Source: Botryllus schlosseri
Lineage: Eukaryota
Assembly (NCBI GenBank): GCA_051294905.1
Contig: CM119372.1
Coordinates: 4,094,001-4,158,000 of the forward strand
DNA: 64,000 nucleotides
Direction of reading: 5' to 3'
Positions 9,103 to 28,666 of this stretch are shown piece by piece. The position numbers and the translations under genes were made by a program. Positions within the stretch are counted from its first letter, which is position 1. Each line of letters opens with the position of its first letter. The notes beneath the pieces were generated by a model. That model saw only the letters and a list, made by a program, of their open reading frames with translations, had not been told where the DNA came from and did not search any database.

Positions 9103-9826
9103 TGGAACCCGACCGATTATCGGTTCGCCGATATTATCGGGACGTTATCACACTTTGAAAGAATTATCGGTAATTTTCGTGACGTCACAACATGGCAGTA
9201 GGAAGTCAGAAAACTATATTCTTTGAACGCTAGACTGAGAATATTGACATATTTCATATAGCTTACACTTTACAGGTGTCCAGATGCAGCCTTTCTAGTT
9301 TATTTCATGTTCAAGTATAACTATGGCTGTAAAGATGTTCAAATAAATGCCCTGAAGCTTTGAAAATGTGCTATGTATACATCCAACTTCTTTTGAATAT
9401 CGGCTGAATGTATTGGGGTTGGTCCGTGGACATATGAGCATGCGACATTACAGCATGCGAGACTTCGGCATGCGGCAATTTAGCATGCGACACATGAGCA
9501 TGTGGGTTAAATTACGGGTTAGGGGTAGGTTAGGGTTGGATTTATGGTTGGGTTAGGGTTAGGGTTTAGGTTAGGTTAGGCTAGGTTAGGTTAGGTTAGG
9601 CTAGGTTAGGTTAGGTTAGGCTAGGTTAGGTTAGGCTATGTTTCAGGTTAGGGTAAGTTTTCGGGTTATACAGTCACATGCTGAAGTGACGCATGCTGAT
9701 GTGTTCCATGCTGAACTGTCGTTTTCCGTTGTGTCGCATGCTCATATGTCGGGCAACCATTGGGGTTATCGGTCAAGGTGTCAGATATCGGTATAGACTC
9801 AAAAATCCAATATCGGTCGAGCTCTA
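9103..9826. mobile_element. hAT-type MITE
   Basis: Imperfect TIRs tggaacccgaccgat / atcggtcgagctcta; 8-bp TSD gaatatac at 9095-9102 and 9827-9834. Confidence 0.75.
9421..9758. mobile_element. Small 9-bp-TSD MITE with an internal (TTAGG/TTAGGG)n tract
   Basis: TSD attggggtt at 9412-9420 and 9759-9767; inverted gacatatgagcatgcgaca / tgtcgcatgctcatatgtc; GTTAG array at about 9516-9655. Confidence 0.8.
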
Positions 9827-11284
9827 GAATATACCAAAGATTATTTGCTGATATCTTTGCGGTCGAATATCCTGCAGTGATAATGTACCTCAAAACCCCA
9901 TTGGAAGTCGGATATGTCCGTCGTAAATGTCCCTCGCACTAACATAATAACAGAAAGGGAAGTCAAATTGATATAAGAACTTTACAAGAAGTGCAAAAGG
10001 ACACATATTTGAAGATTAAATTTGTAGCAAAGAATATATTTGAATTTTAAATTTTTTCTATATTTGGACCAGTGTCGAAAATTGAAGTTAATTTGCGCGG
10101 GACATTTTTTTCGATTTGTACAAAATAACTATAATTTTATTAATTTATACCAAAATGTTCATCAATTCCTGCTTTTTAGTCATAACCCTAGTGTATACCC
10201 GTTGGCAGGAACGAAACAGCACTTCGTCAGGCTCCGCAAAAAAACTTGAGTCTTGGGCTCCTATAGGGTGATAAACCGTCCCCATCACGTTGTTCGCTTT
10301 TGCCATGAAATTATTGTTGAACTGTTTAATGAGCCAGCGTGAAGTGCTCAGCTTTATATCCACAGGGTGATACAGCTTTATATCCACAGGGTGATACAGC
10401 TGTATATCCATAGGCTGATACAGCTTTACATCCACAGGGTGATACTGCTGATACAGCTCACATCCATGAATGAAAAAAGACTCTCTCCACAGGGCCCTAG
10501 TATCCCTATCAAACGAGAATCTTAAATCTGGTATTTTTGATAGGTTTCAGATTCGAATACGGATGAAAGATTCTAATTTCATATTAGGAAGGAGTTCACT
10601 GCATGGAATTTCTCCAAAGGTGTAAATAATACTTTTTACGTGATCACAAAGCACCCAACTACAAACAGTTGGTCCGAAAATTCGTATCTGCATATGGAAA
10701 ACTTGGATCAAACACGATTCATGTTAATAACTAACCTGTGTAGCTTTGTACGACATGTTTCGTATGCTGTGATACGACCAATCGAGATTTCGAGGCTGGC
10801 ACAGTGGAAAATATTATCGAAACTATAATTATCGTTGATGCATAAACTATAGAACTCTAAACGCTAAACGGCGGAACGAGCGGACTGCGGAACTTGCGAT
10901 ACTAATCGGCGGACCGAGCGGACCATGACAAAATAGCTCAATACTAAACGGCGGACCGCGGAACAGCGGAACATGTAATAGACGATTTCCACTGGCTGCG
11001 CATGGGTGGCGCCATTGTTACGAAAGGCTGGCCGAGTGTCGGATCGGAGGTTTTGATACTCCATCACTTTTGAAGGGGCGTAACGTAGGTCATTATAGTT
11101 GTAGATCTCTATATGTGACGGTGCCTACCACCGTTATTCTATTAGAAAAAGTACGCGATATGGGAAACACTTGTTAATACGATGGGAACATTATATATTT
11201 CAGATTGGAAAAATTTCGAATATCACAAAAAGCGGTTGCCAGATAATTTTAACCTGCATTTATGTCGTTTTTACCGCATAATCG

Positions 11285-14200
11285 CCATAGTGGGAAGGAC
11301 TTAGTACCCTTTTATGAATTTAAGGGGCCCTAATAACATAATAATAGCCGTTTCTTACTTCGAAACCTATCAGGAGATGGGAACCATCGACTTATATTCA
11401 GTAGATAATTATGCCTGAAATTGCCAGATAGGCCTACACGAGTTCAGATGTACCTAGACTCGATGCCGATTTTAACATCTAATAGCCGAAGAAAGGATGA
11501 CTTCTTACCCTGTTATATATACAATGGGTACTAAATAACATGTTAAAAGCCATTTCAAACTTCGGAAGATGCGTGGAGCTGAGCACCTTTGAAATATATA
11601 TTGCCGCATAATTTGTCGGAAATTGCCTAATACTCCAATTCACATGTAACAGACTTGACGTCGTTTTTAACATATAATAGCCAAAGAAGGAAGGACTTCT
11701 TACCCTGTTATGAATAAAATGGGTCCTAAATAACATCTTAAAAGCAGTTTCAAACTTCGGAAGAGGACTGGAGCTGAGAACCATCAAAATATATATTGCC
11801 GCATATTGTGTCGGAAATTGCCCAATACTCCAATTCACATGTAGCAGACTTGACGTCGTTTTAAAGATATAATAGCCAAAGAAGGAAGGACTTCTTACCC
11901 TGTTATGAATAAATTGGGTCATACATAACATCTTAAAAGCCGTTTCAAACTTCGGAAGATGCCTGGAGCTGAGAACCATCAAAATATATATTGCCGCATA
12001 TTGTGTCGGAAATTGCCTAATACTCAAATTCACATGTAGCAGACTTGACGTCGTTTTAAAGATATAATAGCCAAAGAAGGAAGGACTTCTTACCCTGTTA
12101 TGAATAAAATGGGTCCTAAATAATATCTTAAAAGCCGTTTCAAACTTCGGAATATGCCTGGAGCTGAGAACCATCAAAATATATATTGCCGCATATTGTG
12201 TCGGAAATTGCCTAATACTCCAATTCACATGTAGCAGACTTGACGTCGTTTTAAAGATATAATAGCCAAAGAAGGAAGGACTTCTTACCCTGTTATGAAT
12301 AAATTGGGTCCTAAACAACATCTTAAAAGCCGTTTCAAACTTCGGAATATGCCTGGAGCTGAGAACCATCAAAATATATATTGCCGCATATTGTGTCGGA
12401 AATTGCCTAATACTCCAATTCACATGTAGCAGATTTGAAGTCGTTTTAATGATATAATAGCCAAAGAAGGAGAGACTTCTTACCCTGTTATATATACAAT
12501 GGGTACTAAATAACATGTTAAAAGCCATTTCAAACTTCGGAAGATGCATGGAGCTGAGCATCTTTGAAATATATATTGCCGCATAATTTGTCGGAAACTG
12601 CCTAATACTCAAATTCACATGTAGCAGACTTGACGTCGTTTTAAAGATGTAATAGCCAAAGAAGGAAAGACTTCTTACCCTGTTATATATACAATGGGTC
12701 CTAAATAACATCTTAAAAGCCATTTCAAACTTCGGAAGATGCTTGGAGCTGAGCATCTTTGAAATATATATTGCCGCATAATTTGTCGGAAACTGCCTAA
12801 TACTCAAATTCACATGTAGCAGACTTGACGTCGTTTTAAAGATGTAATAGCCAAAGAAGGAAAGACTTCTAACCCTGTTATATATACAATGGGTCCTAAA
12901 TAACATCTTAAAAGCCATTTCAAACTTCGTTATATGCGTGGAGCTGAGAACCATCTAAATATATATTGCCGTATATTGCGTCGGAAATTGCCCAATACTC
13001 AAATTCACATGTAGCAGACTTGACGTCGTTTTAAAGATATAATAGCCAAAGAAGGAAGGACTTCTTACCCTGTTATGAATAAAATGGGTCCTAAATAATA
13101 TCTTAAAAGCCGTTTCAAACTTCGGATGATGCATGGAGCTGAGAACCTTTGAAATATATATTGCCGCATATTGTGGCGGATATTGCCTAATAAACCAATC
13201 CACATGCAACAGTGTTGATGTTGTTTTTATGATATAATAGCCAAAGAAGGAGAGACTTCTTACTCTGTTATGAATAGAATGGGTCCTAAATAATATTTTA
13301 AAGGCCGTATCAAACTTCGAAAGATGCCTGGAGCTGAGAACGAACGAAATATATATTGCCGCATATTGTGTCGGAAATTGCCGAATACTCAAGTTCACAT
13401 TTACCAGACTTGACGTCGTTTTAAGATGTAATCGCTAAAGAAGGAAAGATTTCTTACCCTTTTGTGAATTGAATGCGTCCTAAATAATACATAATAAGTC
13501 GTTTCAAACTTCGGCACCTATCCGGAGAAGAGAACCATCGAAATATATTTGGCGGAATATTACGCCTGAAATTGCCTAATACACGAGTTCAGATGTACCA
13601 GACTCGATGTTAATTTTAGCAGGGTTGTAATGACTCGAGTCATGACTCGACTCGAGTCAGACTCGAGTCACGATTTTCAGATGACTCGACTCGAGTCATT
13701 TTCTCAAATTACGAAAATGACTCGACTCGACTCGAGTCAATCTGTGTATTGACTCGACTTGGACTCGAGTCATTGCGCATGACTCGAAGCAAGTCATTGA
13801 CTCGAGATTCAGACGGCCAAGACCGACATTTCATTGTAATTTCGAAGCCAACACACTATTGGGATTTCTTTTGTTGGTACTGGTGTACGAAAATGCGACC
13901 AGAAACTGCTAAAAGTTAGGAAAATTGATATATTATAAATGCGCACCATTCAATATCACCAAACAGAGTTAAAAAAAAGTGGGTTTAGGAAGACTTTAAC
14001 TGGAAACTGAGCAGTCAACACAAGGACTTGGACTCGAGTCATAATACCATGACTCGGACTCGATCCTCTGTTCGCTGACTTGGACTCGGTGGGAATTGAA
14101 AATGACTCGACTTAACTCGAGCCAAAAATATAAAAGTGAGATTGACTTGTGACTCGGAGCCTAGTGACTTGGTTACAACCCTGGATTTTAGCATCTAATA

Positions 14201-14865
14201 GCCAAAGAAGGAAGGACTTCTTACCCTTATACGAATAGAAGGGGTCCTAAATGGCATTTAAAACGTCGTTTCAAACTTCGGCGCATAACCGGAGAAGAGA
14301 ACCATCGAAATATATTTAGCGGAAAATTACGCCTGAAATTGCCTATTTCACAAGCTCAGATGTACCAGACTCGATGTCGATTTTAGCATCTAATAGCCAA
14401 AGAAGGAAGGACTTCTTACCCTTATACGAATAGAAGGGGTCCTAAATGGCATTTAAAACGTCGTTTCAAACTTCGGCGCATAACCGGAGAAGAGAACCAT
14501 CGAAATATATTTAGCGGAAAATTACGCCTGAAATTGCCTATTTCACAAGTTCAGATGTACCAGACTCGATGTCGATTTTAGTATCTAATAGCCAAAGAAG
14601 GAAGGACTTCTTACCCTTATACGAATAGAAGGGGTCCTAAATGGCATTTAAAACGTCGTTTCAAACTTCGGCGCATAACCGGAGAAGAGAACCATCGAAA
14701 TATATTTAGCGGAAAATTACGCCTGAAATTGCCTATTACACAAGCTCAGATGTACCAGATTCGATGTCGATTTTAGCTTCTAATAGTTAAAGAAGGAAGG
14801 ACTTCTTACCATCTTATAAATAAAATGAATTCTAAATAACATAATAGAAGCCATTTCAAACTTCG
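11285..14865. repeat. Left arm: 195-bp tandem repeat, about 15 units, outer and inner subfamilies
   Basis: aatagcc anchor at 11871, 12066, 12261 (outer type) and 14197, 14392 (inner type): period 195. Confidence 0.95.
13620..14183. mobile_element. hAT-type MITE (CAGGGTTGT termini, GACTCGAGTC-rich), left-arm copy
   Basis: cagggttgtaa...ttacaaccctg; imperfect 8-bp TSD aattttag/gattttag from the satellite unit. Confidence 0.9.
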
Positions 14866-14963
14866 TACAATATCAGGATATCAATGAAATATTATACGAA
14901 CTGATTATCCGTCGGTTTTGGTATACTATAGACAAGGAAGAAAGGACCACTCCCCATTTCATT

Positions 14964-15222
14964 GAGAGAGATAGAGAGAGGTATGATATTCTTTTCCGCC
15001 TGCACCACGAGGTGCTTTGAAGAAGGAGTTGCGATACGGTCGTGAGTTCATCTAGTCTGCGCCCCCGTTTTTTCTCCTCTATGCTATCCGTGATTGCTGA
15101 GTGCCTAGCTGGGTAGCTGTGGATACCAATTTTCGAGTCTTTGGTATGACCCGGCTGGGGATCGGACCCACGACCTACCGATCGAGAAGCCGGACGCATA
15201 ACCATTACACTCTCCTGCTCGG
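14964..15222 (-). mobile_element. tRNA-derived SINE (Meta-domain-like centre, (CT)n tail)
   Basis: A-box agtgtaatgg, B-box-like ggtccgatccc, central gggtcataccaaagactc..ccagctaggcactcagca; copies at 35268 and 57680. Confidence 0.85.
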
Positions 15223-15443
15223 TAAGAGTAAATGCTAAGTGAGAGAGAGTAAATACTAAGCATTTTGTAACCTATTTAAGTCTTCGGAGCCTATATCTGG
15301 GTCTGGCAATAATCAGCAATTAGCATACATATCCTGGCAGCAGATAATCGTCACCAATTAACGATCCAACGAATTTAATATGCATAATGTGCCAAAAGGA
15401 ACATGATTTTTTAAAAATCCTCAGCAGATTTCCAGTCTTCACT

Positions 15444-17036
15444 CATGTCTGACAAATAGGACATAAAATACTTCCATTAACTATGTCCCGTGCGCATGCC
15501 GAGTGATATTTTCGGTTGCATCCTTGGCACCTCTCCTGCAAAACATTTTATGGTATATATATAGAAATGGTCAATGTTTCGGACAGGTGTATTTCGTTTC
15601 AATTAATCTAGCAGAGTGAATTATGGAAGGGTCATACCCAGGATGAGTCAAGCTATGATGCGTCAGCACAAAAGCTGCAGATATCGGCGATTGGATCTGA
15701 ATGTGGAATGCATAAGATTTGTTGGCATAGCTATATTACTCTCATAACAATCGAACAAACCGATTCATTGCGTATGATGTTGATCGATACAAAACTACTG
15801 TTTCCATGTTTCTAATTCGATATAGATTTCCTCACCTGATTTGTCTAATATTTGTCTGCCGATTTCGTAGCGAAATCTCCGCAGGTCAGTTTCTTTATTC
15901 GGAATGCTGGCCAATGACGAAGTTGTGTTCTTCACAACTTGTTCTGCAAACTTTTGAAAACCTGATCTATGTCTGCCACTTTGTGAAATGAAATCCAGAA
16001 TTTAGTTACCTTCGAGACATAAACGCCGCAGTTGTAACCATCTTGTTGGATGGAATGGTCGTACATTCTGATAACCCATTTCTTAGACGTCATGGATCGG
16101 CAATCGACCAACTCGCTCCGGATTCGCAGATATGTCCTAGTAGAGAAGGAATACGGTAGTATATATATATCTCTTATGTGCAATTGTTACAAGTACGGTT
16201 AAGTAAATAAAATTAAATCAGTATTCGACCTCTTTCGAACTAGTAATGGGTTGAAGCCAAATCAAACTCTCATGTGAGTGAATTAACAATATTCAATATT
16301 CCGCTGACTTACTTGAATTTCTCTGCCGCAGCTATGGTGCTTTTTTTTGTACTCCCTAGTGGATTTATCAAAGCTATTTCGGAAACTGATGTATTAATTA
16401 CCTGTAAATACATAAATGTGATTTATTGGATTTGCCGAACGATCATATACAATTCGAAATTCGTGACCAACCAACAGCATCCAGTGCTGGAACTTATTCA
16501 CTGCACCGATGATCTTGTCGTAGTGATCAAGATTCACGTGTCAAACATGTAACTGATTGCAAAGAACCGACGATGCACAATGCATTGCGATGCCATCGTT
16601 GTCGTGCGTCCAAGATCACAACGGTGTCATTTCATATTGCCTTACTAATAATCATCGTCCTGGATTTATTAATTTATTGAAATAATAGGGCTGTGTACCT
16701 TTCGCAGTGACTGCCTTCGGATTAGCTTTTCATCCGAACCGGTAATGATAAGAGTCGCTAGGAAGCTATCCAGCACATAAGTTTTTGCGTCAGCGAGCAT
16801 ATGCAGATAGTAATCAATGACCTGTGTAGTAAATAATCACCATACGAGTATAAACTGAAGTATTAGCTTCTCTTAATACTAGATTTGCAGTAGTAAATTA
16901 CATTATGATGACTTACTCCACCGCTCAGCCATTCGTCTGGACGCAGGGTTCGCAAATCTCCCATGAAGAGCGTATTTGAGGAAACATAAGCAGCTACCAT
17001 TTCCACTTTTCCTTTACTCCAAAGCAATTCTAGTTC
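15444..17036 (-). pseudogene. Spliced 3' exons of the foldback core gene: Ulp1/C48-like protease plus PHD finger
   Basis: GT-AG exons: 17036-16917 (DLRTLRPDEWLSGG), 16821-16699 (VIDYYLHML), about 16540-16472 (GAVNKFQHWMLL), 16401-16313 (LINPLG), 16136-16010 (QQDGYNCGVYV); then CSFC..W/ERCQGCNRKYHSAC..YLCPIC with a stop and a frameshift. Confidence 0.75.
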
Positions 17037-17092
17037 CTAGGGTTATAAGGTATGTTAGACAAAAGTTATCTGAAATACTGCGACGAGCTTAC

Positions 17093-18685
17093 TTCATTTT
17101 CGCCTTCACCGGTCTTTGTAGGCCTACTAGGCTCGTTATCGAATTTCAATGTTTTTGATATTTCGCCGGAGGTGAAGCAGCCAGTCTGCCTTCTTTTTCT
17201 TTTTTTGAAAGTCGACTTTACCAATTGTTGTGTTTCCTTTATCAATTTTGTTTTTCTTCTTCTTTTAAAACCGCGATGCAATAAACTATCCGCAAATATT
17301 TTAGATGAAGTCATTATTTCTTTGTGGTATTTCAAAATGAATTTGTCAATTTTACTACATCTTGTATTGTCCAAATAGATGTTTTTCAGCTCATAAAAAT
17401 GCTGCTCTATAATCCCCTGCGTGCGGTTACGATCACAAATTGATTGCAAATTATTTTTTATTCTGGCAGAGCGGATTTTCTCAAATTCACTGCCGAATTT
17501 TTGATAGGCAGCATTTGGGTAGTCGGTTCTTTTGGTGTGGCGATCAAGATTACCAAGTAAAAGTCCAGAAGTAGCACCAAGCCTTGGAAATATTACGTTT
17601 TCAATTTTGGTAAAAAAGGACTCTGAAAAATATTTGTTGGTTGTTGGCCATAATCCGCGGTCATTTCCTTCTTGATAGGTTATAGATTTTTTAAATAAAT
17701 CAAGTTTGTTCTTGTACCTCAGATGAAACGGGGATTTGTATTCTTGACTCTTGTCATGTATGATAAAATTCGCAAAGACGTCATCGTCCTTTTGATATTC
17801 ATAAAACTGATCCGGTAAATTTTTGAGGCTTTCATTTTTAGTCATATGGGATTGTAGCGCTTTGAAACTTTTTTCAACCTGGGGGGAATTTTGTCGCAGT
17901 AAGAGCACAACAAATAAGTGGCTAATGATGAGATCCATTTCATGAATAGTTGAGGCTAGAAACATCATTGCAATCCAATGCATAGCATCGCGGTAGTACT
18001 TCTTGATGTAATATCTTTTGCACATAGTGGACGCGGCCTTCATGCAGTGGCTCAAGCAGTTAACAATTAGGGTTAAACTCAAGTCACTACCCGACGCTTC
18101 ACCCGTGACTATCCGGTACACGCGATGATAGCCTAATATTGGAGTCTGGTCTCACTGCAAAAGACGGAGAGAAAAGCGTTCCATAGGGCGACAGCACCGT
18201 CAAGTATTACCAATCTCGGCACCAACTTCGTCGAGCATGCATCTCTAAAACACCCGAGAAAATATTTTATGCTCTCGGTCGTATGGCACGTTGTAACGTA
18301 GCTTGCTACCGGTATTCCTGGCAGATCTTTGTAAGGACTTCGGACCAAAATCGAATATATTTGAAAAGCTTTTCCTCCGTCCGACCGAATAATTGTCCCA
18401 GTTGAATCAAAATACAAAATGTCTTTCTGGCACAAGTCTTTGAATAATTCCAATTGAAAGGTAGTGAATAATGTCACGCTTAAAGGGCAGCCTTGCCAAC
18501 CTCTAATGAAATGTGTGCCATCTTGCTCAAATATTTTCCTCAACAACTCAATGTTTTGAAAAACATCGGAGGTCCAGCCACAAGGTAGACCAAACTTTGA
18601 GTTTATTTTTCTTAAGACATCCAATGACGGAACATATGTATGGGCTCCGGAAATCCGTTCCCTTTCGGTTTGGGCAACTTTAATC
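17093..18685 (-). pseudogene. Mutator/NOF-type DDE transposase (N-terminus apparently missing; frame broken at about 18133)
   Basis: LYFDSTGTII (D1), PGIPVA, PRLVILDGAVALWNAF (D2), NCLSHCMK (CxxH), RTQGIIEQHFYELK (E); splice donor gtaagc at 17092 links to the Ulp1 exons. Confidence 0.8.
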
Positions 18686-18809
18686 TATGGATCTATCGAG
18701 TGTACACCATCTTTGGAAAGGTTTTTGGCCCCCTCAATAACATATGCCCCAGTACAAAAATACCATGTTGAACTGATAAATTAGCAAATAATATAAGATT
18801 CATGTGTGT

Positions 18810-20418
18810 ATTCAGAAAAGGGTAAGAAGTCCTTCCTTCTTTGGCTATTAGATGTTAAAATCGACATCGAGTCTGGTACACCTGAACTCGTGTAATAGGC
18901 AATTTCAGGCGCAATTTTCTAATAAATATAATTCGATGGTTCTCTTCTCCGGATAGGTGCCGAAATTAGAAACGACGTTTTAAATGCCATTTAGGACCCC
19001 TTCTATTCGTAGAAGGGTAAGAAGTCCTTCCTTCTTTGGCTATTAGATGCTAAAATCGGCATCGAGTCTGGTACATCTGAACTCGTGTAATAGGCAATTT
19101 CAGGCGTAATATTCTAATAAATATAATTCGATCGTTCTTTTCTCCGGGTTGGTGCCGAAGTTTGAAACGAATTGTTATGTCATACTTATGACGCCTTCTC
19201 TGCATAAAAGGGTAAGACGTCCTTCCCTCTTTGGCTATTAGATGTTAAAATCGACATTGAGTCTGGTACACCTGAACTCGTGTAATAGGCAATTTCAGGC
19301 GTAATTTCCTAATAAATATAATTCGATGGTTCTCTTCTCCGGGTAGGTGCCGAAGTTTGAAACGACGTTTTAAATGCCATTTAGGACCCCTTCTATTCGT
19401 ATAAGGGTAAGAAGTCCTTCCTTCTTTGGCTATTTGATGCTAAAATCGGCATCGAGTCTGGTACATCTGAACTCGTGTAATAGGCAATTTCAGGCGTAAT
19501 ATTCTAATAAATATAATTGGATGGTTCTCTTCTCCGGGTAGGTGCCGAAGTTTGAAACGACGTTTTAAATGCCATTTCGTACCCCTTCTATTCGTATAAG
19601 GGTAAGAAGTCCTTCCTTCTTTGGCTATTAGATGCTAAAATCCAGGGTTGTTACCAAGTCACTAGGCTCCGAGTCACATGTCAATCTCACTTTTATATTT
19701 TTGACTCGAGTCAAGTCGAGTCATTTTCAATTCCCACCGAGTCAAGTCCGAGTCCAAGTCAGCGAACAGAGGATCGAGTCCGAGTCATGGTATTATGACT
19801 CGAGTCCGAGTCCAAGTCATTGTGTTGACTGCTCAGTTTCCAGTTAAAGTCTTCCTAAACCCACATTTTTAACTCTGTTTGGTGATATTGAATGGTGCGC
19901 ATTTATAATATATCAATTTTCCTAATTTTTAGCAGTTTCTGGTCGCATTTTCGAACACTAGTACCAACAAACGAAATCCCAATAGTGTGTTGGCTTCGAA
20001 ATTGCAATGAAATGTCGGTGTTGGCCGTCTGAATCTCGAGGCAATGACTTGCTTCGAGTCATGCGCAATGACTCGAGTCCAAGTCGAGTCAATACACAGA
20101 TTGACTCGAGTCGAGTCGAGTCATTTTCGTATTTTGAGAAAATGACGCGAGTCGAGTCGAGTCATCTGAAAATCGTGACTCGAGTCTGACTCGAGTCGAG
20201 TCATGACTCGAGTCATTACAACCCTGCTAGAATCGACATCGAGTCTGGTACATCTGAACTCGTGCATTAGGAAATTTCAGGCGTAATATTCCGCCAAATA
20301 TATTTCGATGGTTCTCTTCTCCGGATAGGTGCCGAACTTTGAAACGACTTATTATGTATTATTTAGGACGCCTTCTATTCACAAAAGGGTAAGAAGTCTT
20401 TCCTTCTTTAGCGATTAC
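18810..20418. repeat. Right arm, inner segment: 195-bp repeat (inner subfamily), inverted relative to the left arm
   Basis: Units are reverse complements of those at 13430-14865. Confidence 0.92.
19643..20226. mobile_element. hAT-type MITE, right-arm mirror copy of 13620-14183
   Basis: cagggttgttacc...attacaaccctg; TSD ctaaaatc/ctagaatc; same position in the arm, opposite orientation. Confidence 0.9.
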
Positions 20419-20640
20419 GGGTGGATTGCACAGATGTCGATTAATTCCTAATCGCCGATTATACGTCAGTAATCGGCTGGCTTCCGTGGCACAGATGCCG
20501 ATCTGCCACTAATCGGTGAATTTTAATCGGCCAAATGTTATCCGCCGAGCGAGGTGTCTAGAAAGTTAATCGGCTGTGTGCTTCGCGTTGACTGCGGTCT
20601 GGGCTGGCTACAGGTACACTAGTATTTGGTATTGAGATGG

Positions 20641-20792
20641 TGTAGTATTATCACTTAGCTTCTAGCTGTCTACTTAGACAGATACCTTTACAAGTCGGAT
20701 TCGAAGTGTATTCCCCACAGACCACATGCTTGTCTGTCATCAAAACAATACGGAACCCATCGCTGCTCAATCAAGCATATAATAACACCACA
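20641..20792 (-). repeat. 3' LTR, preceded on the minus strand by the polypurine tract aaaaaagggaga (20793-20804)
   Basis: Identical by eye to 25103-25254. Confidence 0.95.
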
Positions 20793-21014
20793 TCTCCCTT
20801 TTTTAGGGGAAGAGACATCGACACTACTTACATTATATACAAGTCACAATACAGCAGCGATAACAATATATACAAGGTGACACTACCCCTGCAAGGTTAG
20901 CAAGAGCAGGGCATTTACACTTAACAGACAGAGTCACCAGGGAGGTAGACTACTCCCAAGGTGTACAACAGGTTAGGGGATTATTCTGCCCCTGATCTTG
21001 AAACCTGTGTGTGA

Positions 21015-23651
21015 TCAATATTGCTCAATAAATCGTTGTGGCGGATTTCTAATTCTCGAGGATCGTCTCGCGGGGTTCTCTCCAGCAGGTTCAGTTGAAC
21101 CGTTGGCTTCTTGATGGTGTCCTGGTTTCTTCGACGCTACAAGACAATATTCGACCGGTTTATTCTGATGCGGAACAGATGGTTTTGGTTCCTCCGGAGG
21201 GTTGTACTTCCGTAAGTGTTTTCGGTTACGCCTCATTAGTCCATTGTTCGTCTCAACGATGATCGCTCTAGGATTTTCATGCATCTCCTTGATGATACCC
21301 ATCCTTTCGCAATCAGGAATGTATACATGGTCTCCAATTCCGAATCTATCATTCTCAACCACACGATGTCTTTTATTGTAACTCGCAGCCATTTTCTGTC
21401 TATACTCCGTCTCCCTTTTTCGAAGATCTTCGACATCAACAGTCTGTGGCCGTAGCTGGTCAGGATGACAAATCACCTTTGTCTTCAATCTGCGTCCCAT
21501 GCTCAATTGGGCGGGCGATAATCCGGAGTGCAAGGGCGTGTTCCTATAGTTCAGTAGCGTCAGATAGACATCATCTGTTTTCTTGAGCAGGGCCTTTATA
21601 GTTTGCACTCCTCTCTCGATGAAGCCATTACCCTGGCTATATTTTGGAGAAGAGGTTAGGTGCTGAAAATTCCAGGCTCTGGAGAACTGAGAAAATTCAG
21701 AGGAAACGAAGACCGAAGCATTGTCCGTAAGCAAGACATCACAGATGCCATGATGAGAGAACACATTCTTGAAGTGAGAAATTGTGTCCCGTGACGAGAT
21801 CGTTTTCTTTACTGAGAACAGTTCTATGTCTCTGGAGTAGTAATCCATGATCAAAAGGTAGTACTTGTCCTCCAGTTGGAAAAAATCAGCGGCAATTCTA
21901 GCCCATGGGCGTGTCGGAAATTCGGTCCCCATCGTCGGTTCAGTTCGATCTCGTCGATGCTTTTCACAGCGGTTGCAGTTGAGTACTGCATGTTCAATGT
22001 CTTTTGAATAACCCGGCCACCAGCAAGCTTGTGCTGCAAGTTGTCTGGTCTTGGTTATTCCAAGGTGCGATTGGTGAAGGTGCTTCAGAACATCTTCGCG
22101 CAACGGCGGTGGTATGACGAGTCTGTTGCTTTTCAGCAAGAGATTGTCATGTACTGTTAACACGTCTCTGAGATTCCAGAAGATACGCATCGGTCCATTT
22201 AAAGTTTCTTTGTTCTTTGGCCATCCTCCAACAACATATGTCATAACAGTCGACAGTGTCTTGTCTTCTTTAAGAGCATTCTTTATTTCTTCCAGGCGTC
22301 GGTCAGTAGCAGACAGCCCGCTGACCAGAGCACGCACACATGCTTCCGCTTCCTTGTGAAGATCGGTGTCTTCGATGCCATACGTTGTCGGCAAAGGGCA
22401 TCGTGATAGCGCGTCTGCTGTGTACATCGACTTTCCTGGCGTGTGGAAAATTGCGAAGTTATAGGACATCAGCCTAATTTTGAATCTTTGAATTCTGACA
22501 GGTAATTCGTCAAGCGATTTCGTTGAGAGCAGAGGCACTAGTGGCTTGTGGTCAGTTTCAACTTTCAGATCTTCAATACCCAGTAAGAGTTCTCTCCAGT
22601 ACTCCATTGCCCAAGTGATTGCCAAGGCCTCTTTTTCTATCTGGGCGTACCGTTGTTCAGTGTCGCTCATTGATCTGCTGGCATATGCGACCGGGCGAAG
22701 GTTATTGTCATCTTGTCTTTGCATCAGAACGGCACCAAGGCCGTAACTGCTGGAGTCAGCTGAGAGCACAGTTTCCCTGTCTGGGCAATACATGGCTAAT
22801 GTAACATCGGAAGACAGATCGCGTTTCACTCTTGCAAACGATTCCTCTTGTGACGGGCCCCAGTACCACTCAACCTTCTTCGCCAACAATTCTCGTAACG
22901 GCTTGGTCAGTTCCGCTAGGTTGGAGCTAAACTTCATGAGCTGGTTTGCCATTCCCAAGAACCTGCGAAGTTCAGTCTTATCAGTAGGAGCAGCATAATT
23001 CACAATAGCCTGCACCTTCTTTGGATCTTTGCTGATACCATCTTGGCCGATGACCTGACCGAGATATTCAAGTTCAGTTGCAGCAACGATGCATTTCTTC
23101 TCATTTAGAGTCATGCCAGAGCATTTTAGACGGTCCAATACAGCCTTCAGCGTCTCATCGTGCGTAGTTTGAGTGCCAACTACTAGGATGTCATCCATAT
23201 GGCAAATCACGTTTGGGATTCCTTGCAGGATTTCACTGATACGTTTTTGGAACGCTTCCGGTGCGCTCGAGATGCCAAATGGTAAGCGACGAAATTGATA
23301 TCTCCCAAACGGTGTGATAAACGTTGTCAACTTTCGACTTTCAGGGGCGAGCTCAATTTGATAAAATCCAGAGTTTGCGTCCAGCTTAGTGAAGACCGTC
23401 CCCTTTGACAGTTGCCCCAAAGTGCTTTCGACTGTAGGCATAGGGTACAGCTCCCTTTTTACCCCATTATTGAGCTTGGTTAGGTCTACACACAGTCGCA
23501 CCTTTCCGTCTGGTTTGGCTACGACTACGATTGGAGCACACCAATCTGTAGGTCCCGTCACTTCTTCTATGATACCGAGCTCTTCAAGCTTATCTATCTC
23601 CTCTTTGAGTTTCTGGCGCAATGGGATTGGCACACGACGTGGCAAATTCAA
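21015..23651 (-). CDS. pol: Gypsy pol: reverse transcriptase, RNase H, integrase
   Basis: VRLCVDLTKLN, KLDANSGF, LPFGISSAPE, HMDDILV, ADSSSYGLGAVL, YAQIEKEALA, TDHKPL, HQSHLG..CNRC, DFF..TDN..SQGNGFIERGVQT. Confidence 0.95.
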   Translation of the reverse strand: MNLPRRVPIPLRQKLKEEIDKLEELGIIEEVTGPTDWCAPIVVVAKPDGKVRLCVDLTKLNNGVKRELYPMPTVESTLGQLSKGTVFTKLDANSGFYQIELAPESRKLTTFITPFGRYQFRRLPFGISSAPEAFQKRISEILQGIPNVICHMDDILVVGTQTTHDETLKAVLDRLKCSGMTLNEKKCIVAATELEYLGQVIGQDGISKDPKKVQAIVNYAAPTDKTELRRFLGMANQLMKFSSNLAELTKPLRELLAKKVEWYWGPSQEESFARVKRDLSSDVTLAMYCPDRETVLSADSSSYGLGAVLMQRQDDNNLRPVAYASRSMSDTEQRYAQIEKEALAITWAMEYWRELLLGIEDLKVETDHKPLVPLLSTKSLDELPVRIQRFKIRLMSYNFAIFHTPGKSMYTADALSRCPLPTTYGIEDTDLHKEAEACVRALVSGLSATDRRLEEIKNALKEDKTLSTVMTYVVGGWPKNKETLNGPMRIFWNLRDVLTVHDNLLLKSNRLVIPPPLREDVLKHLHQSHLGITKTRQLAAQACWWPGYSKDIEHAVLNCNRCEKHRRDRTEPTMGTEFPTRPWARIAADFFQLEDKYYLLIMDYYSRDIELFSVKKTISSRDTISHFKNVFSHHGICDVLLTDNASVFVSSEFSQFSRAWNFQHLTSSPKYSQGNGFIERGVQTIKALLKKTDDVYLTLLNYRNTPLHSGLSPAQLSMGRRLKTKVICHPDQLRPQTVDVEDLRKRETEYRQKMAASYNKRHRVVENDRFGIGDHVYIPDCERMGIIKEMHENPRAIIVETNNGLMRRNRKHLRKYNPPEEPKPSVPHQNKPVEYCLVASKKPGHHQEANGSTEPAGENPARRSSRIRNPPQRFIEQY

Positions 23652-25060
23652 CAGAAGGGCTCAACGCCGTCTTTCATGTGAATAGTAAACGGCTCACCCA
23701 GTTTGCCAATGCCTTTGAATAGCTCTGGGTATGCTTTCTTGACGTCATCTTTGCTCCGCAAACGAGTCTCAGGGGTAAGTTTGACTGCCCTGATGGATAC
23801 TTGAACATCCTGGCACTCTTGAAGAAGTCCAAGTTCCAGTATAGCAGGAGCGCCAAGGAGTAGCTTATCCGCATCCGATACAATGTAGACTTTCTCTGTT
23901 AACGCCTTGAAGTCGGAGCTGAGTTTCATCCGTACAAAACCAACAGTATTGAGAGGTTGTCGATTAACTCCAATGAGCCGTCTATCAGATTTCTGTATAG
24001 GCCCATATTGTCTCTTGTACAATCGCCGCGGCATGACAGACACTTCTGCTCCAGAGTCAACAATCCATTTCAGAGTGTTGTTAACGACTCTCAACATGAT
24101 AGTCCACTGGATAGTCTTAGTAGCCTGTGCTGAACCTACCGATGCTTCTGCTTCCTGGGTTTCGCCCACACTTCCACACATTGCGTCTGGAAGTTCTTCC
24201 TCGTCATAACACTCAGCGCTTGTTTCTTCCTCAATCGTTTCGCTATCCAGCACGCATACATTTCTACTTCTGCACCTTTCCTTATAATGGCCCGTTCTAC
24301 CACATCTGTAGCATTTTACTGAGGCTGCTGGACAGAACCCTCTGCCTCTTTTGTGCCGTCGACCGCAAAATGTGCAGTTTATTATAGGCACAGTTTCAAC
24401 TGCAGGCTTCTTAAAAGTTTGAGGTCTCGCTTTGTTGGCCACCGCTTCTATTGCTGTAGGTGCAGATCTCCGATCAGCATAGCTCCTTCTCGTCTCCTGT
24501 GTAGTCACAACGTCGATAATCTTCTGAGACGTTAGCTTGTCAAAGTCGATTTCCGATAGCTTGTACAACATCTCAGAATCATCTACGCACCCGACAATAA
24601 GTTTAGCCCGAACGGTTGCGTCGTACACTGCTGGAGGAAATTGGCATTTTCGTGCAGCCTTTCTGACTGCATGTACCCAAGATGCAAATGATTCACCCTC
24701 TTTGCGTTGTAAGAAATGGAAGAATTGAAGGTGTGCTTCAAACCTGCCATCCCGAACCTTGAAACGTTCATCAAACTTCTTCAAGACGGTATCAAGGTCA
24801 GTTTTGTCTTCTGCTGCAACTGCTTCCACACCGTCTGATTCTGCGACTGCTTCAGCAAACACGAAATCCTCGTATATTTCCTTTCCTTCATTGCCTATGA
24901 ATTGCTGTAATAATCCAACTTTCTGGCGCCCAGGTGATTCAGCATGACCTGCTGCATCGATAAAGATCAGGAATTTCTTTTTCCATTCCAGCCAGGCTTC
25001 TGCCTCATTCACGGCGCCTATTATTGTGAGATCCCCCGGACCTAATACATAGGCCGCCAT
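23648..25060 (-). CDS. gag: Gypsy gag (two Zn knuckles) plus aspartic protease
   Basis: CTFCGRRH..C, CYRCGRTGHYKERC, WIVDSGAEVSV; starts at ATG just downstream of the PBS. Confidence 0.93.
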   Translation of the reverse strand: MAAYVLGPGDLTIIGAVNEAEAWLEWKKKFLIFIDAAGHAESPGRQKVGLLQQFIGNEGKEIYEDFVFAEAVAESDGVEAVAAEDKTDLDTVLKKFDERFKVRDGRFEAHLQFFHFLQRKEGESFASWVHAVRKAARKCQFPPAVYDATVRAKLIVGCVDDSEMLYKLSEIDFDKLTSQKIIDVVTTQETRRSYADRRSAPTAIEAVANKARPQTFKKPAVETVPIINCTFCGRRHKRGRGFCPAASVKCYRCGRTGHYKERCRSRNVCVLDSETIEEETSAECYDEEELPDAMCGSVGETQEAEASVGSAQATKTIQWTIMLRVVNNTLKWIVDSGAEVSVMPRRLYKRQYGPIQKSDRRLIGVNRQPLNTVGFVRMKLSSDFKALTEKVYIVSDADKLLLGAPAILELGLLQECQDVQVSIRAVKLTPETRLRSKDDVKKAYPELFKGIGKLGEPFTIHMKDGVEPFC

Positions 25061-25090
25061 AATCTAGTAATTAGGCTAGTTCGAAGTTAT

Positions 25091-25102
25091 CCGCTGCCAC
25101 CA
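25091..25102 (-). promoter_or_regulatory. Primer-binding site TGGTGGCAGCGG, complementary to a tRNA-Leu 3' end
   Basis: Directly follows the 5' LTR on the minus strand; matches the recalled ...CCGCTGCCA-CCA end of tRNA-Leu(AAG/TAG). Confidence 0.8.
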
Positions 25103-25254
25103 TGTAGTATTATCACTTAGCTTCTAGCTGTCTACTTAGACAGATACCTTTACAAGTCGGATTCGAAGTGTATTCCCCACAGACCACATGCTTGTCTGTC
25201 ATCAAAACAATACGGAACCCATCGCTGCTCAATCAAGCATATAATAACACCACA
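25103..25254 (-). repeat. 5' LTR
   Basis: Identical to 20641-20792. Confidence 0.95.
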
Positions 25255-25449
25255 GATGGTGTTAACTGGATGCTCTGACGTGCAGTTGCGGTATTAGCTG
25301 AAAACACTGTACTCAGACACTACTACAACTATTATGGGCGTGGCCCTACCACAGCCGATAGTACCTTATGCTATGATTACCGGTATGACATTTTTACAGA
25401 CTGTACTGTACACTGTACAGAATTCGATAGTATACTTTGGAAATAAAAT

Positions 25450-27177
25450 ACGAGGACGGAAAATTGCAACAGACAGGAAAAGTTTAGAATAATTGAATTG
25501 ATAGAAGAATATATTGAAACCAAAGAAGACAAAAAGACTGACGGCAAAACAAAAAGACGCGGCCTGAGATGTAATCAGTAAGAAATATGCAGCTATGAAT
25601 ACCGGTCCTGCGCGTGCAGCCGTACAACTGGCCAAATCCAGAATGTATTGAAAAATTTGAAACGAAAAGCAAAAAAGTTGTATGCATCACGACGCGTCGA
25701 ACGGGCCAAAACTGGCCCACCTCCAGTTGACGAACTCCTTGGAAAAGGTTTTCGATAGGTAATTTTACTGACAATTCTTTAAAATTCGCAGTAGGAGATG
25801 TATTGTTTCCATCTGTGTTTATCGTGACTCTCTGCGTGCTTCATACTCACGTTTTAACTCTCGTTTTGAACTGAATAGACAAATTTTGATGATCATGAGA
25901 AACATTTATTGTCTTTTTGCAATTCCCAACTAACTAACCATATCCAGAGACTGCTGCACGTCATCAGCTATACGAAAACGACACATGGGGAACACTGCTC
26001 AGCAAATTCCTAATCTGAACCGCTCCTTGATCAATCTGCAATTGATTTTTATAGCACTGGTATATTTATTATCACTTTTCAGACCTTATTCCATCTCAAA
26101 TTGAATGTTTGAAACATCGGTATGACTACGATTGCGTATTCGATAGTCACACGAACAATGGTGAGTGCATTTAGGACATAAACTTTTTTAATATGTTACA
26201 ACCAACGACAGAGGAACTTGCATCCAATTTAACTTGCAACAGTCTGGCTTTGCTACAGTGCAGGTGCCTGAGCAGTCTCGTTGGCCATATTATTGTTAGG
26301 CTTGCAACTTGACTTGAAGATTTGATTTCGAGTCAGGATTTCTCATACCGTATGTCATATTGAAGCAGTGACTCGAGTCAAATCCATTCATCCTATTCCA
26401 ACTCGAGTCAAGTCATGATTTTAGTCATCCATCCTTCCTATGTGTCGCGAGGTTAAGATAAACCGTGAAAAAATAATTTGAAAGTAACTTTTCTAATGTA
26501 TTTCTTACTAAAATTTTTAAATAAAATGTTTATTCAGATGCATATTCCGAAGATTCAGTTTGCATCTTCATCATCGACGAGGATGTGAACACAGAGGCTG
26601 GTTCTTCATGTCACAACAGCGATGGTAAGTTGAGGTACTAATTTGAAATCCATATGAATCGTGTTGGTACTAACATAGCCACACGAATACTTCAAATAGA
26701 ACATTGCTGGTTGTTTAACATTGCTCTATTGAATTTGAACTCTATTGAATCAATACAACTGTTGTTAACCATAGTTTTCTTGCAGCAAATGAAATTGCTG
26801 CCTATTTCGTTGTTGATGGCGATGTGACGCTTTCTTCAGTTCCCTCGACAGACTTCAGGATGGAACACCAGACCGGTAAGTGTTAGCATACAATGATGGT
26901 GATGCAACCCACAGTTTATTCATTGCTACATTCAGATATGCAAGATAAAACAGAGAACACAAAAAGCTCAACGCCAATTGTCTCGAAAAAGAGAGCCAGG
27001 TGTGTTGATGAAAAAAATCATATTTTAACTATAATGTTGGTGATCAAAATGTGGTGTTCGGAAATGAGCGTCCTGGAAATGGCAAAGGAGCAACATGATA
27101 TCAGAATGAAATATTTTAAATTACAGATGCATGTCAAGTACCAGAAACTGGAAATGGAAAAAGAACTGCAAAATTGA
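25450..27177 (+). pseudogene. Harbinger Myb/SANT-like DNA-binding protein, spliced and degenerate
   Basis: QEKFRIIELIEEYIETKEDKKTD..AA*DVISKKY..R..VQL..Y*KNLKRKAKK..KTGPPP (W codons mutated to stops); putative small exons near 26538 and 26786; coiled-coil C-terminus EMAKEQHDIRMKYFKLQM. Confidence 0.75.
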
Positions 27178-27599
27178 GAAAATACAGCAACGAATCGAAA
27201 TAGCACAAAAACCAGACTTGGACAACTAGTTAATTGGCTGTATAATTAGAATAGTAAGTGCAAAATGCCAGTAATATAATTCTAACTTAATTTCTGGTTT
27301 TGCTGAAAATTCTACGGTAGAACTCTACAATACTAAGCGAGTTGTGCAGATTCAATTTCCAAATTTTCACATATTCAGTAATCCCTATTCTAATTTAATT
27401 GAAAAATAACTACTGTCTATAATTCTATTCTAATTTGGAAAAATATGCAGCCATAATTATCATTATAGTCTAATTTTGAAAAGCTGATTTACTAGTTGTC
27501 CAATTCTGACTACAGCATGGGCTACTGGATCTCGTAATAAAAATAATTGACGAGGAATTGAATGTGTGGTTATTGGTGTTCAAACACGAGATGAAATAC

Positions 27600-27770
27600 T
27601 CAAGACATTCCAGAGAAGTGATTTTGAACAATCTGTCTGCGCTGAAGTCGTGCTCGGTTGTGTTGTGCCGTCATGTTATCGGTGTCTTTGACCAATCTTC
27701 TTGGCACTCTCTCTTCTGCTAGGCTCTCTAACATCTGGAGGGTAGCAAGAACATTGAGGTATGGATCCAT
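27600..27770 (-). pseudogene. Internally deleted Harbinger transposase (N-terminus fused to C-terminus)
   Basis: MDPYLNVLATLQMLESLAEERVPRRLVKD joined to RARLQRRQIVQNHF*, resembling HARBI1-type termini; convergent with the Myb gene. Confidence 0.55.
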
Positions 27771-28666
27771 TGTTATTCTCAGTCGATATTGCACTATATT
27801 AATGTAGCTCTCTATTCTATAAAACAGGTTGTATTGAATTTTATGGTTGACCAAATTCTTGATAAACTGAAGTGAGGTTTGGCTGTCAACAAACAAGATT
27901 ACTCAACTGGGTAACAGCAGATAACTTTGCATTGCAAAATTGTAACATAAATGCATTACTGTTTGTACAGCACTTGAGCACATTGCACAACAGTTAGATC
28001 CTTGCAATGGCTGAAATTTACTTCTACATTCCTGCAGAGCCAATTGTCATTGGTATGGAGAAATCAAAATCGTATGCAAATGTGCGTGTATGAACTCAAT
28101 TTGTATATCTTCACATTGGTGAAGCGGCTATCATGACTAATGCACCAATAAACGGAAAATATAATTATATCTGAAAAGTATCTATCTAGTTCTAGATATC
28201 CCTGAGTAATGAGATAAATGTCCTGCAATATACGAAATTTGTGATAGAGTTTCTGGCATAGCAATACCGGTAGACGATGATTTTGGTACGCTATTCCTAC
28301 AACACCTCTTTTCATAACCTCAAAACGTTTGTTCTGACGCGTTCTGGCGTTCATAACCTTACACTGTGCAGTAGCAACAGTTTAGTTGGCTGCTATACGC
28401 ACATGACATCAACTAAACATACATATCTATGAAGAGCGCATCTCTCCCTCATGACGACACAGTTCATATCGCCACCGACCGAAAACAGCTGATTGCTAAC
28501 GTACGTCATTTGCGTCGATTTGCGTCAGTAATCCGCGATAAGATAACTCACAGGCGAATCCGTATCTGTACCACAGAGTCACCAGGTGACCTTGCTCGCT
28601 GATTAAATTATCGCCGATTAAGGCAATCGGTGATTACTTTTCAATCGGCATCCGTGCAATCCACCC

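Follow-up and report, generated by a model that had tools for sequence, protein, structure and literature searches.

Structure of the Element and Its Ends

The window, that is, the whole stretch of 64,000 nucleotides of Botryllus schlosseri DNA that was analysed, contains a gene remnant situated inside a foldback DNA transposon of 19.4 kb (11127–30569), for which both the ends and the target-site duplication were mapped. The duplication on the left (11119–11126) is the 8-bp sequence CGGTGCCT, identical to the 8 bases that follow position 30569 (right copy, 30570–30577), and the terminal motif found at 11127 recurs inverted at 30569, with a chance expectation of 0. The inverted arms are about 3.7 kb long, about 91% identical and made of 195-bp repeats. 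The left arm (11127–14865, plus strand) is composed of the terminal motif (11127–11151), a 195-bp tandem array (11443–13604), a unique segment and a second 195-bp array (14184–14810); the right arm (minus strand) is divided into an inner part (18961–20418), with 91% identity to 13428–14865 and a 195-bp array at 18818–19642, and an outer part (28667–30569), with a 195-bp array at 28670–30403 and the terminal motif at 30545–30569. The two parts are separated by an 8.25-kb Ty3/gypsy-type LTR retroelement (20419–28666, minus strand; 881-aa pol frame at 21015–23660), nested precisely at the arm breakpoint, 20418|28667. The inner repeat by itself (13428–14865 and 18961–20418) was considered as the whole element and was ruled out by the terminal motif and the duplication, which extend the element to 11127–30569. 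A tRNA-like stretch near 15040–15220 gave no match by ARAGORN or Rfam.

The terminal motif occurs at 32 sites genome-wide, and among the ends that could be paired an exact 8-bp direct repeat flanks each of the 11 pairs, an equal 9-mer being present in none of the 11.

The Transposase Exon and Its Fold

The largest coding portion of the remnant is a transposase exon on the minus strand (17093–18684), which retains the motifs D (FDSTG), D (LDGA), C-x2-H (CLSH) and E (NRTQGIIE). The open reading frame, 18684–17066, reads as far as GEGENE and then meets a GTAAGC donor, with the GT at 17092–17091. Upstream of the exon, a degenerate 5′ remnant (18685–18808, minus strand) lies ahead of the TAG at 18687–18685, and a further 1.5 kb or so of the 5′ coding sequence found in the sister copies is missing.

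The transposase core falls outside the current Pfam families: neither MULE (PF10551) nor Transposase_mut (PF00872) gave a match, whether with frames of the window and the sisters or with the 104 relatives, and among these relatives the core matched no Pfam transposase family of any kind. An AlphaFold model of the 536-aa transposase frame of a sister copy (pLDDT 81.3) has as its top solved-structure match the ISCth4 transposase (Foldseek E 4.6e-5; Z 12.5, rmsd 5.6, 256 aligned residues), with Hermes (Z 10.3) next and then the P element (Z 8.6). As modelled, it resembles ISCth4 (6xgx, 6xg8, 6xgw) in having an RNase H-like catalytic domain with an inserted helical domain, and differs from it in that the identity is only about 9–11% and in that ISCth4 is a bacterial insertion sequence without protease or PHD modules. 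The family of ISCth4, IS256, is bacterial and is regarded as kin of the eukaryotic Mutator transposases. A comparison by hhalign with PF10551-positive MULE frames from the same genome aligned the two D and the C-x2-H (P 1.9e-4, probability 47%; P 0.55 for an unrelated profile used as control), a moderate link, and the closest named protein-atlas clusters are PF10551 MULE clusters with scores of 0.85–0.91, to be taken as a lead only.

It seems rather unlikely that the element belongs outside the Mutator/Rehavkus kind, in a superfamily with 8-bp duplications (hAT or Zisupton/KDZ, for example). The duplication length of all 11 end pairs is shared with Zisupton and most hAT elements, as these are described in PMC12730594, and Hermes is the second-best structural match; nevertheless, ISCth4 ranks above Hermes in both structure searches, no KDZ (PF18758) or hAT family of Pfam was matched by any frame of the window or the sisters or by any of the 104 relatives, and both the hhalign alignment to MULE frames and, as a lead, the atlas neighbours point to the Mutator side.

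Exon Model of the Protease and Finger Modules

Downstream of the transposase exon, a series of small exons on the minus strand encodes a Ulp1-like protease of the C48 family and a PHD-type finger. The first C48 exon (16917–17036) runs from ELELLW to WLSGG and is followed by an exon beginning with VIDYYLHML (16699–16821), by the exon carrying the catalytic His (HW) and Asp (YDRS) (16402–16552), by a small exon (16313–16355) that includes STKKSTIAAAEKF, and by the exon with the Gln and Cys of the motif QQDGYNCG together with the C-terminal helices (15836–16136). The finger is encoded by an exon with the first Cys pair, CSFC (15638–15696), and by the last exon (15443–15535), which contains the second half, C-x2-C-x4-H-x2-C-x10-C-x2-C, and the stop at 15445–15443. 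All seven junctions of this model are bounded by GT..AG and have compatible phases, in accordance with the original prediction of splicing from the donor after GEGENE (17092) into small exons encoding WLSGG-VID, HW and QQDGYNCG. At the first intron (17093|17036), both donor and acceptor are in phase 0, and the GT and AG are kept in six of the six copies compared. That prediction also proposed that the reading is in frame throughout, which is true of the junction phases and not of the frame itself, interrupted by a TGA (16543–16541), a frameshift near 16001 and a TAG (15655–15653).

The junction between the HW exon and the small exon (E4/E5) admits two candidate acceptors in the window, in the same phase and 18 nt apart, giving an intron of either 28 or 46 nt, and both acceptor AGs are missing in five of five sisters. 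The minimum intron size in animals is about 40 nt or more, and the 28-nt model was dropped as too short, its acceptor being in addition absent from the sister copies; the 46-nt intron, with its acceptor AG at 16357–16356, was retained. A copy from a third lineage, L009, is a rearranged fragment and was discarded as an arbiter of this junction. The tetrapeptide NPLG, previously read as an exon (16362–16354 region), most likely lies inside the 46-nt intron. The accompanying proposal that the catalytic Asp had been replaced by the Asn of NPLG does not hold, the Asp being present in YDRS: in the alignment, the D of IVYDRS falls on that of VVDPARNP in the anchovy relative P0093 and on that of LADPARS in P0063, from an Antarctic fish, and the Asn found after this Asp is Ile in the sister copies.

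The catalytic His, Asp, Gln and Cys are all present in canonical order (HW, YDRS, QQDGYNCG) and aligned with both relatives, as expected from the C48/Ulp1 signature first noticed in the sequence; from established knowledge of the C48 family, we take HW, the Asp of YDRS and the Gln and Cys of QQDGYNCG to be the catalytic positions. The order His-Trp, Asp, Gln-x5-Cys is that of SENP, Ulp1 and NEDP1 (Peptidase_C48, clan CE), from which the window domain differs in its longer loop after the Asp, in its fusion to a transposase and in being broken; compared with the P0093 protease, its His–Asp hairpin is three residues shorter. Against a profile built from the C48 domains of seven relatives, the spliced window translation reaches 39.4 bits, and by BLASTP all of its 296 residues align with P0093 across every exon junction (E 7e-26; E 2.5e-24 when 107 proteins were searched).

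The two finger exons (15696–15638 and 15535–15446) combine into C-x2-C-x13-C-x2-C-x4-H-x2-C-x10-C-x2-C, with all eight ligands of the C4HC3 pattern expected after the protease exons, although the TAG interrupts the first finger loop in the window copy. These ligands are kept in five of the six copies compared and align with the finger of P0093. The exon motifs and the C4HC3 pattern are far above chance. On its own, the 30-aa last exon reaches 20.3 bits with zf-RING_2 and 14.5 bits with PHD, both below the cut-offs, whereas the finger homologous to it in P0093 reaches 27.3 bits with Pfam PHD (cut-off 24) and matches the solved PHD fingers 5y20 (E 4.7e-4) and 5vab. The sister copies carry an N-terminal PHD-like finger too (19.6 bits, under the Pfam cut-off).

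The results of the domain searches depend on whether single exons or whole proteins are considered. P0093 is above the cut-offs for both C48 (Peptidase_C48, 28.7 bits; cut-off 20.7) and PHD, and PF02902 is passed by P0093, P0063 and the seven relatives used for the profile; the window exons taken singly, in pieces of 40–84 aa, gave no C48 or PHD match at E <= 1, their shortness putting every Pfam threshold out of reach. For the same reason, tblastn of 16 relatives against the window recovered the transposase exon and none of the small C48 and PHD exons. The structural model of P0093 is of low confidence (pLDDT 51.8), and its 25 matches at E <= 0.001 are all C48 or clan CE proteases. This same model (pLDDT 51.8) matches the structures of NEDP1, SENP1/2/5 and Ulp1 with Foldseek E of 1e-5 to 1e-3 and a TM of about 0.5 on the target, and since these include the NEDD8 protease NEDP1 besides SENP/Ulp1, the modifier could be other than SUMO.

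Decay of the Locus, Sister Copies and Transcripts

The window locus is a truncated pseudogene and thus cannot make the protein. The N-terminus is short by about 500 residues; the transposase exon has a 5-bp insertion near 18133, which throws it out of frame; the HW exon contains an in-frame TGA (16543–16541) or else has lost its splice acceptor, since the acceptor used by the sisters just before 16537 is AC in this copy and the upstream CAG acceptor adds the TGA; the QQDGYNCG exon carries a 1-nt frameshift near 16001; and TAG stops are found at 15655–15653, where the sisters have Thr or Lys, and at 18687–18685. The sister copies, with identities of 88–89%, each have their own lesions. Two of them keep open transposase frames of 1041 and 1054 aa, and none of the six copies compared has an intact C48 part, so that the protease may be dispensable for mobilisation, or not needed in cis for the spread of the element.

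Mapping of RNA at 85% likeness, with about 37 million records representing 6–13% of each run, recovered 56 reads (20, 2, 11 and 23) from four runs of the same species, with no splice joints; the depth did not exceed about 3, which is uninformative on splicing either way. Most of these reads were less than 95% alike to the window, and one of the 56 was at least 99% alike.

Relatives and Coding Constraint

The transposase has 104 relatives at E <= 1e-3, among which the Pfam domains found are C48 in 9, UCH in 8 and PHD in 4, and no other Pfam family. The nine in which transposase and C48 form one predicted protein come from other genomes, including those of fish and a sea cucumber as well as metagenome records, and are gene predictions rather than proven transcripts. 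Some relatives add a UCH deubiquitinase; P0105, the sole match in a search for longer proteins, combines UCH and PHD. The spliced exon model is colinear with the single-chain relatives P0093 and P0063, in both of which the motif E-L-x-x-L-W found at the junction follows an acidic linker within one chain, and the domain order is common to the Botryllus schlosseri copy and the anchovy protein. The predicted transposase + Ulp1/C48 + PHD protein is accordingly borne out as an architecture, through these colinear chains and the 9 of 104 relatives with C48, and not as a product of this locus, which is a truncated pseudogene.

Between the window copy and three sisters, dN/dS is 0.11–0.12 for the transposase exon, 0.35–0.39 for the C48 exons (236 codons) and 0.28–0.42 for the finger, and the p-distance of the introns is 0.17. 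Judged from these substitution patterns, the C48 exons are under coding constraint between the two element lineages.

A different arrangement can be conceived, in which the C48–PHD exons constitute a separate second gene (ORF2) with its own start, unspliced to the transposase, the in-frame donor and acceptor being coincidental. Several features would fit it, namely the lack of RNA joints among the 56 reads, the in-frame Met within the first C48 exon, the stop met eight codons after reading through the donor, which makes exon 1 alone a complete frame, and the two sisters that combine long open transposase frames with a broken C48 part. Such an arrangement is nonetheless quite improbable, given the phase-0 donor and acceptor with GT and AG kept in all six copies, the continuity of acidic linker and E-L-x-x-L-W in P0093 and P0063, and the nine relatives with both domains in a single predicted protein. 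It is highly improbable that a host SENP-like fragment was captured passively and gave rise to a protease and finger without a role for the element (transduplication in the Pack-MULE style). In favour of such a capture, Mutator-like elements are well known to take host fragments (PMC6446971) and each of the six copies has a broken C48 part; against it, none of the catalytic H, D, Q and C has been lost, the ratio of 0.35–0.39 over 236 codons between two lineages stands against an intron p-distance of 0.17, C48 recurs in the same transposase family of fish, sea cucumber and metagenome records, and the domain order is equal in Botryllus schlosseri and anchovy.

Comparison with Known Elements and Possible Role

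The gene inside the foldback element is most probably the coding remnant of an old, dead foldback-type cut-and-paste transposon, with an N-terminal PHD-like finger and a Cys-rich region (both in the sisters only), a Mutator/IS256-like DDE transposase, a Ulp1/C48 protease and a C-terminal PHD finger. To our knowledge, the purpose of DDE–Ulp1–PHD fusions, catalogued since 2010, has never been tested. In an intact element of this kind, the transposase would bind the repeated subterminal units of both arms and would then excise and reinsert the element. At the donor or the target site, the protease might free proteins of chromatin, repair or silencing from SUMO or from a different ubiquitin-like modifier, and the PHD fingers might anchor the enzyme to the tails of histone H3. 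Countering SUMO-dependent silencing and guiding targeting are the possible roles that the original prediction put forward for such a protein. The proposed steps are all impossible from the window locus.

By its described features, the nearest known group is Rehavkus, a Mutator-like group known mainly from Repbase and placed either within the Mutator/MULE superfamily or beside it as a sister (PMC6446971; bioRxiv 10.1101/2024.12.02.626372). Long inverted termini, subterminal tandem repeats, a single PHD-bearing transposase gene and an animal host are common to Rehavkus and the window element, and the subterminal tandem repeats of Rehavkus vary in number and can expand into satellite arrays, according to the same two sources (PMC6446971; bioRxiv 10.1101/2024.12.02.626372). 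The target duplication, however, has a length of 8 bp in all 11 pairs examined here and of 9 bp in Rehavkus (PMC6446971, Table 1), so that the element can be regarded as a candidate member of this group. For Rehavkus, the main text of PMC6446971 names a "PHD finger" and a "minisatellite" as the features, and it mentions Ulp1 or C48 0 times. Zisupton, similar in its 8-bp duplication (PMC12730594), is distinguished by its KDZ domain (PF18758), for which no match was found.

The combination of transposase, Ulp1 and PHD was published in 2010 for Ginger1 and Mutator elements by Bao, Kapitonov and Jurka (PMC2836005), who note that some Mutator elements, in hydra, lancelet and plants, carry Ulp1, and who propose a link of transposition with the ubiquitin/SUMO pathways. 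The original prediction was right in stating that several groups of DNA transposons have captured Ulp1 (PMC2836005), and the layout is for this reason already known: the present observation is sound and does not represent a new kind of thing. The Ulp1- and PHD-bearing transposases described in PMC2836005 share with the window gene a DDE core, a C-terminal Ulp1 (pfam02902) and then a PHD, in genes with 0–4 introns. The Gypsy-integrase-like core of Ginger1 is absent here, with no rve or integrase Pfam match in the transposase of the window and sister frames, and the window family further departs from the Ulp1-bearing elements of PMC2836005 in its foldback arms with satellite repeats, in the second, N-terminal PHD-like finger of the sisters and in the UCH of relatives.

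More tentatively, and with the odds rather against it, these elements may constitute a distinct Mutator/IS256-like foldback lineage of animals not covered by Pfam (arthropod-like genomes, fish, sea cucumber), with 8-bp duplications and with transposases that systematically carry C48, UCH or both between PHD fingers, and that would read histone tails and strip SUMO or ubiquitin at their own insertion or excision site. If this were true, the link between transposition and SUMO/ubiquitin would become testable with natural intact members. The dead locus adds annotation and no new biology beyond it; what it contributes is a family with clear limits, for which the exact ends, the 8-bp duplication, an exon model and relatives across phyla are now available.

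Exon Structure of the Transposase Gene and Translation of Its Small Exons

On the minus strand, the transposase exon combines a 183-aa frame (18684-18133) with a 361-aa open frame (18151-17066), the latter ending in ..GEGENE at the donor GTAAGC, whose GT lies at 17092-17091, as originally predicted. Downstream, a series of exons bounded by GT..AG was traced: those of the C48 protease lie at 17036-16917 (ending in ..WLSGG), 16821-16699 (beginning with VIDYY..), 16552-16402 (exon 4, with ..HW..IVYDRS..), 16355-16313, and 16136-15836 (with ..QQDGYNCG..), followed by the finger exon at 15696-15638 and the last exon at 15535-15446, with its stop codon at 15445-15443. The encoded C4HC3 finger reads C-x2-C-x13-C-x2-C-x4-H-x2-C-x10-C-x2-C, and the introns measure, in order, 56, 95, 146, 46, 176, 139, and 102 nt, every junction being GT..AG with compatible phases. 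Not every detail of the original prediction held: its exon piece encoding NPLG needs an acceptor that leaves an intron of just 28 nt, and the sister copies have ATTT at that site. With the alternative AG 18 nt downstream, used for the 16355-16313 exon, the intron is 46 nt long, the phase is unchanged, and NPLG would probably be intronic, although this AG, too, is missing in 5/5 sisters. Nor is the catalytic Asp replaced by Asn, as had been proposed, since IVYDRSANP aligns with VVDPARNP of the relative P0093 so that the two Asp residues match, as do the two NP pairs, the Asn itself being Ile in sisters.

Four lines of evidence place this exon pattern beyond chance. The spliced translation scores 39.4 bits against a scripted C48 profile, for which seven relatives, each passing Pfam PF02902, supplied the domains, with His-Trp and Gln..Cys-Gly aligned. 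The 296-residue C-terminal translation matches P0093, an uncharacterised anchovy protein, over its whole length (BLASTP, E 7e-26), spanning all exon junctions and the finger, and also P0063 from an Antarctic fish (E 1e-21). P0093 has the same domain order and passes Pfam for both Peptidase_C48 (28.7 bits, cut-off 20.7) and PHD (27.3, cut-off 24), its finger resembling solved PHD fingers. Finally, dN/dS between the window copy and three sisters is 0.11-0.12 in the transposase exon, 0.35-0.39 over the 236 codons of the C48 exons, and about 0.3 in the finger, with 17% of intron sites differing in the same comparison; ancestors of the element therefore translated the small exons in these frames. 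The original observation is sound, and its reading of the exons skilful.

Lesions of the Window Copy

The frame, at first read as continuous, is not open: five lesions were found along the gene, namely a TAG stop at 18687-18685; a frameshift near 18133, due to a 5-bp insertion absent in five sisters; AC in place of the sisters' acceptor upstream of the 16402-16552 exon, where splicing at the CAG further upstream includes a TGA stop (16543-16541); a 1-nt frameshift near 16001; and a TAG stop at 15655-15653, where sisters encode Thr or Lys. In the sisters the coding sequence extends ~1.5 kb further in the 5' direction and there encodes a PHD-like C-x-C..C-x2-C..H..C finger; this part is absent from the window because its 195-bp array starts at 18809. 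The window locus is a dead, truncated copy of the transposon.

Ends, Arms, and Nested Insertion

The terminal motif known from sister ends occurs at 11127 (plus, one mismatch) and 30569 (minus, exact), with 0 expected by chance, and the 8 bases flanking each end are identical (CGGTGCCT). Across the 495-Mb genome (32 motif sites), 11/11 pairable end pairs carry exact 8-bp duplications, 0/11 reaching 9 bp. The left arm (11124-14865) is inverted relative to the right arm, which lies in two pieces (18961-20418 and 28667-30572), interrupted at 20418|28667 by an 8.25-kb Ty3/gypsy-type LTR retroelement (20419-28666); the latter has an 881-aa open pol frame on the minus strand (21015-23660; Pfam RVT_1, RNase H, and integrase) and, upstream of it, a frame of 471 aa (23648-25063). 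The arms consist largely of 195-bp tandem units, in arrays of 3 to 11 at 11443-13604, 14184-14810, 18818-19642, and 28670-30403, and are ~91% identical to each other, compared with 98-99% in sister elements, which indicates that the window copy is older. In one sister (G000:C14:7515427-7532290) such arrays lengthen the element to ~16.9 kb, the same passage from transposon to satellite that has been described in Tribolium for Rehavkus. At G000:C1:33343804-33347757, two family termini flanked by an exact 8-bp duplication are separated by only ~3.95 kb and probably mark a short non-autonomous derivative.

Kinship of the Transposase

No Pfam family matches the transposase core in the window, the sisters, or the 104 relatives, among which the complete list of families is Peptidase_C48 (9), UCH (8), PHD (4), and UCH_1 (3). 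For the 536-aa transposase frame of a sister, AlphaFold gives a confident model (pLDDT 81.3, pTM 0.79), whose closest solved structure is the bacterial ISCth4 transposase (E 4.6e-5; Z 12.5), with Hermes and the P element next (Z 10.3 and 8.6, respectively). In hhalign against same-genome frames passing PF10551, the first and second Asp as well as C-x2-H are aligned (P 1.9e-4, probability 47%; P 0.55 for an unrelated control profile), and the nearest protein-atlas clusters are MULE (0.85-0.91, a lead only). Taken together, structure matches, hhalign, and atlas point to a Mutator/IS256-like core. The element resembles Rehavkus as described in print in its long inverted termini, its subterminal tandem repeats, and its PHD finger, whereas the duplication reported for Rehavkus is 9 bp and here 8 bp; since this differs, and the likeness is to the printed description and not to a Rehavkus sequence, the element is named Rehavkus-like and not a member.

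The domain layout is of an already known kind: Ginger1 transposases with C-terminal Ulp1, one having Ulp1 and PHD, were described by Bao, Kapitonov and Jurka (2010, PMC2836005). The same authors noted that Mutator elements from hydra, lancelet, and plants bear Ulp1 and that a further transposase has a C19 ubiquitin hydrolase, and proposed that ubiquitin and SUMO pathways participate in transposition. Among papers mentioning Rehavkus, the three searched for Ulp1/C48 hold no statement of Ulp1 in Rehavkus, a detail that may be unpublished outside Repbase. Four relatives (P0024, P0039, P0089, and P0102) combine a C48 protease with a deubiquitinase of the UCH (C19) type in a single predicted chain, P0024 and P0102 with an additional N-terminal PHD; the Ginger paper (PMC2836005) reports transposases with either OTU or Ulp1, never both.

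Possible Role of the Protease

The element was inserted by cut-and-paste with 8-bp duplications and has one multi-exon gene, in which the motif sets of protease and finger are complete. The transposase would bind the repeated units of both arms, the C48 domain would strip a ubiquitin-like modifier, and the PHD fingers would dock on histone H3; stronger transposase binding with more repeats in foldback termini is reported in work cited in a Tribolium preprint (bioRxiv 10.1101/2024.12.02.626372). That such a protein could counter SUMO-dependent silencing or guide targeting, as originally proposed, is a reasonable hypothesis, with the modifier left general because the model of P0093, a poor one, has the NEDD8 protease NEDP1 as top structural match, before SENP1/2/5 and Ulp1.

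Two sisters, L004 (G000:C16:21339365-21344744) and one at G000:C13 near 10.36 Mb, have open first exons of 1041 and 1054 aa with an N-terminal PHD-like finger, and the same frameshifts and splice-site losses affect the C48 exons of both. In 6/6 copies compared the C48 part is broken, and the sisters L002-L005, ~99% alike, carry identical lesions; copies lacking a working protease have therefore still been amplified, which suggests that spread does not depend on the protease or that such copies are mobilised in trans.

Other Features

Between the stop codon of the gene and the left arm, 15040-15220 resembles a tRNA or SINE on visual inspection; neither ARAGORN nor Rfam found a tRNA or RNA family there. 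At 9517-9652, Tandem Repeats Finder reports the unit GGTTA in about 25 imperfect copies; as rotating it yields TTAGG, the usual telomere unit of arthropods, the tract may be interstitial and telomere-like.
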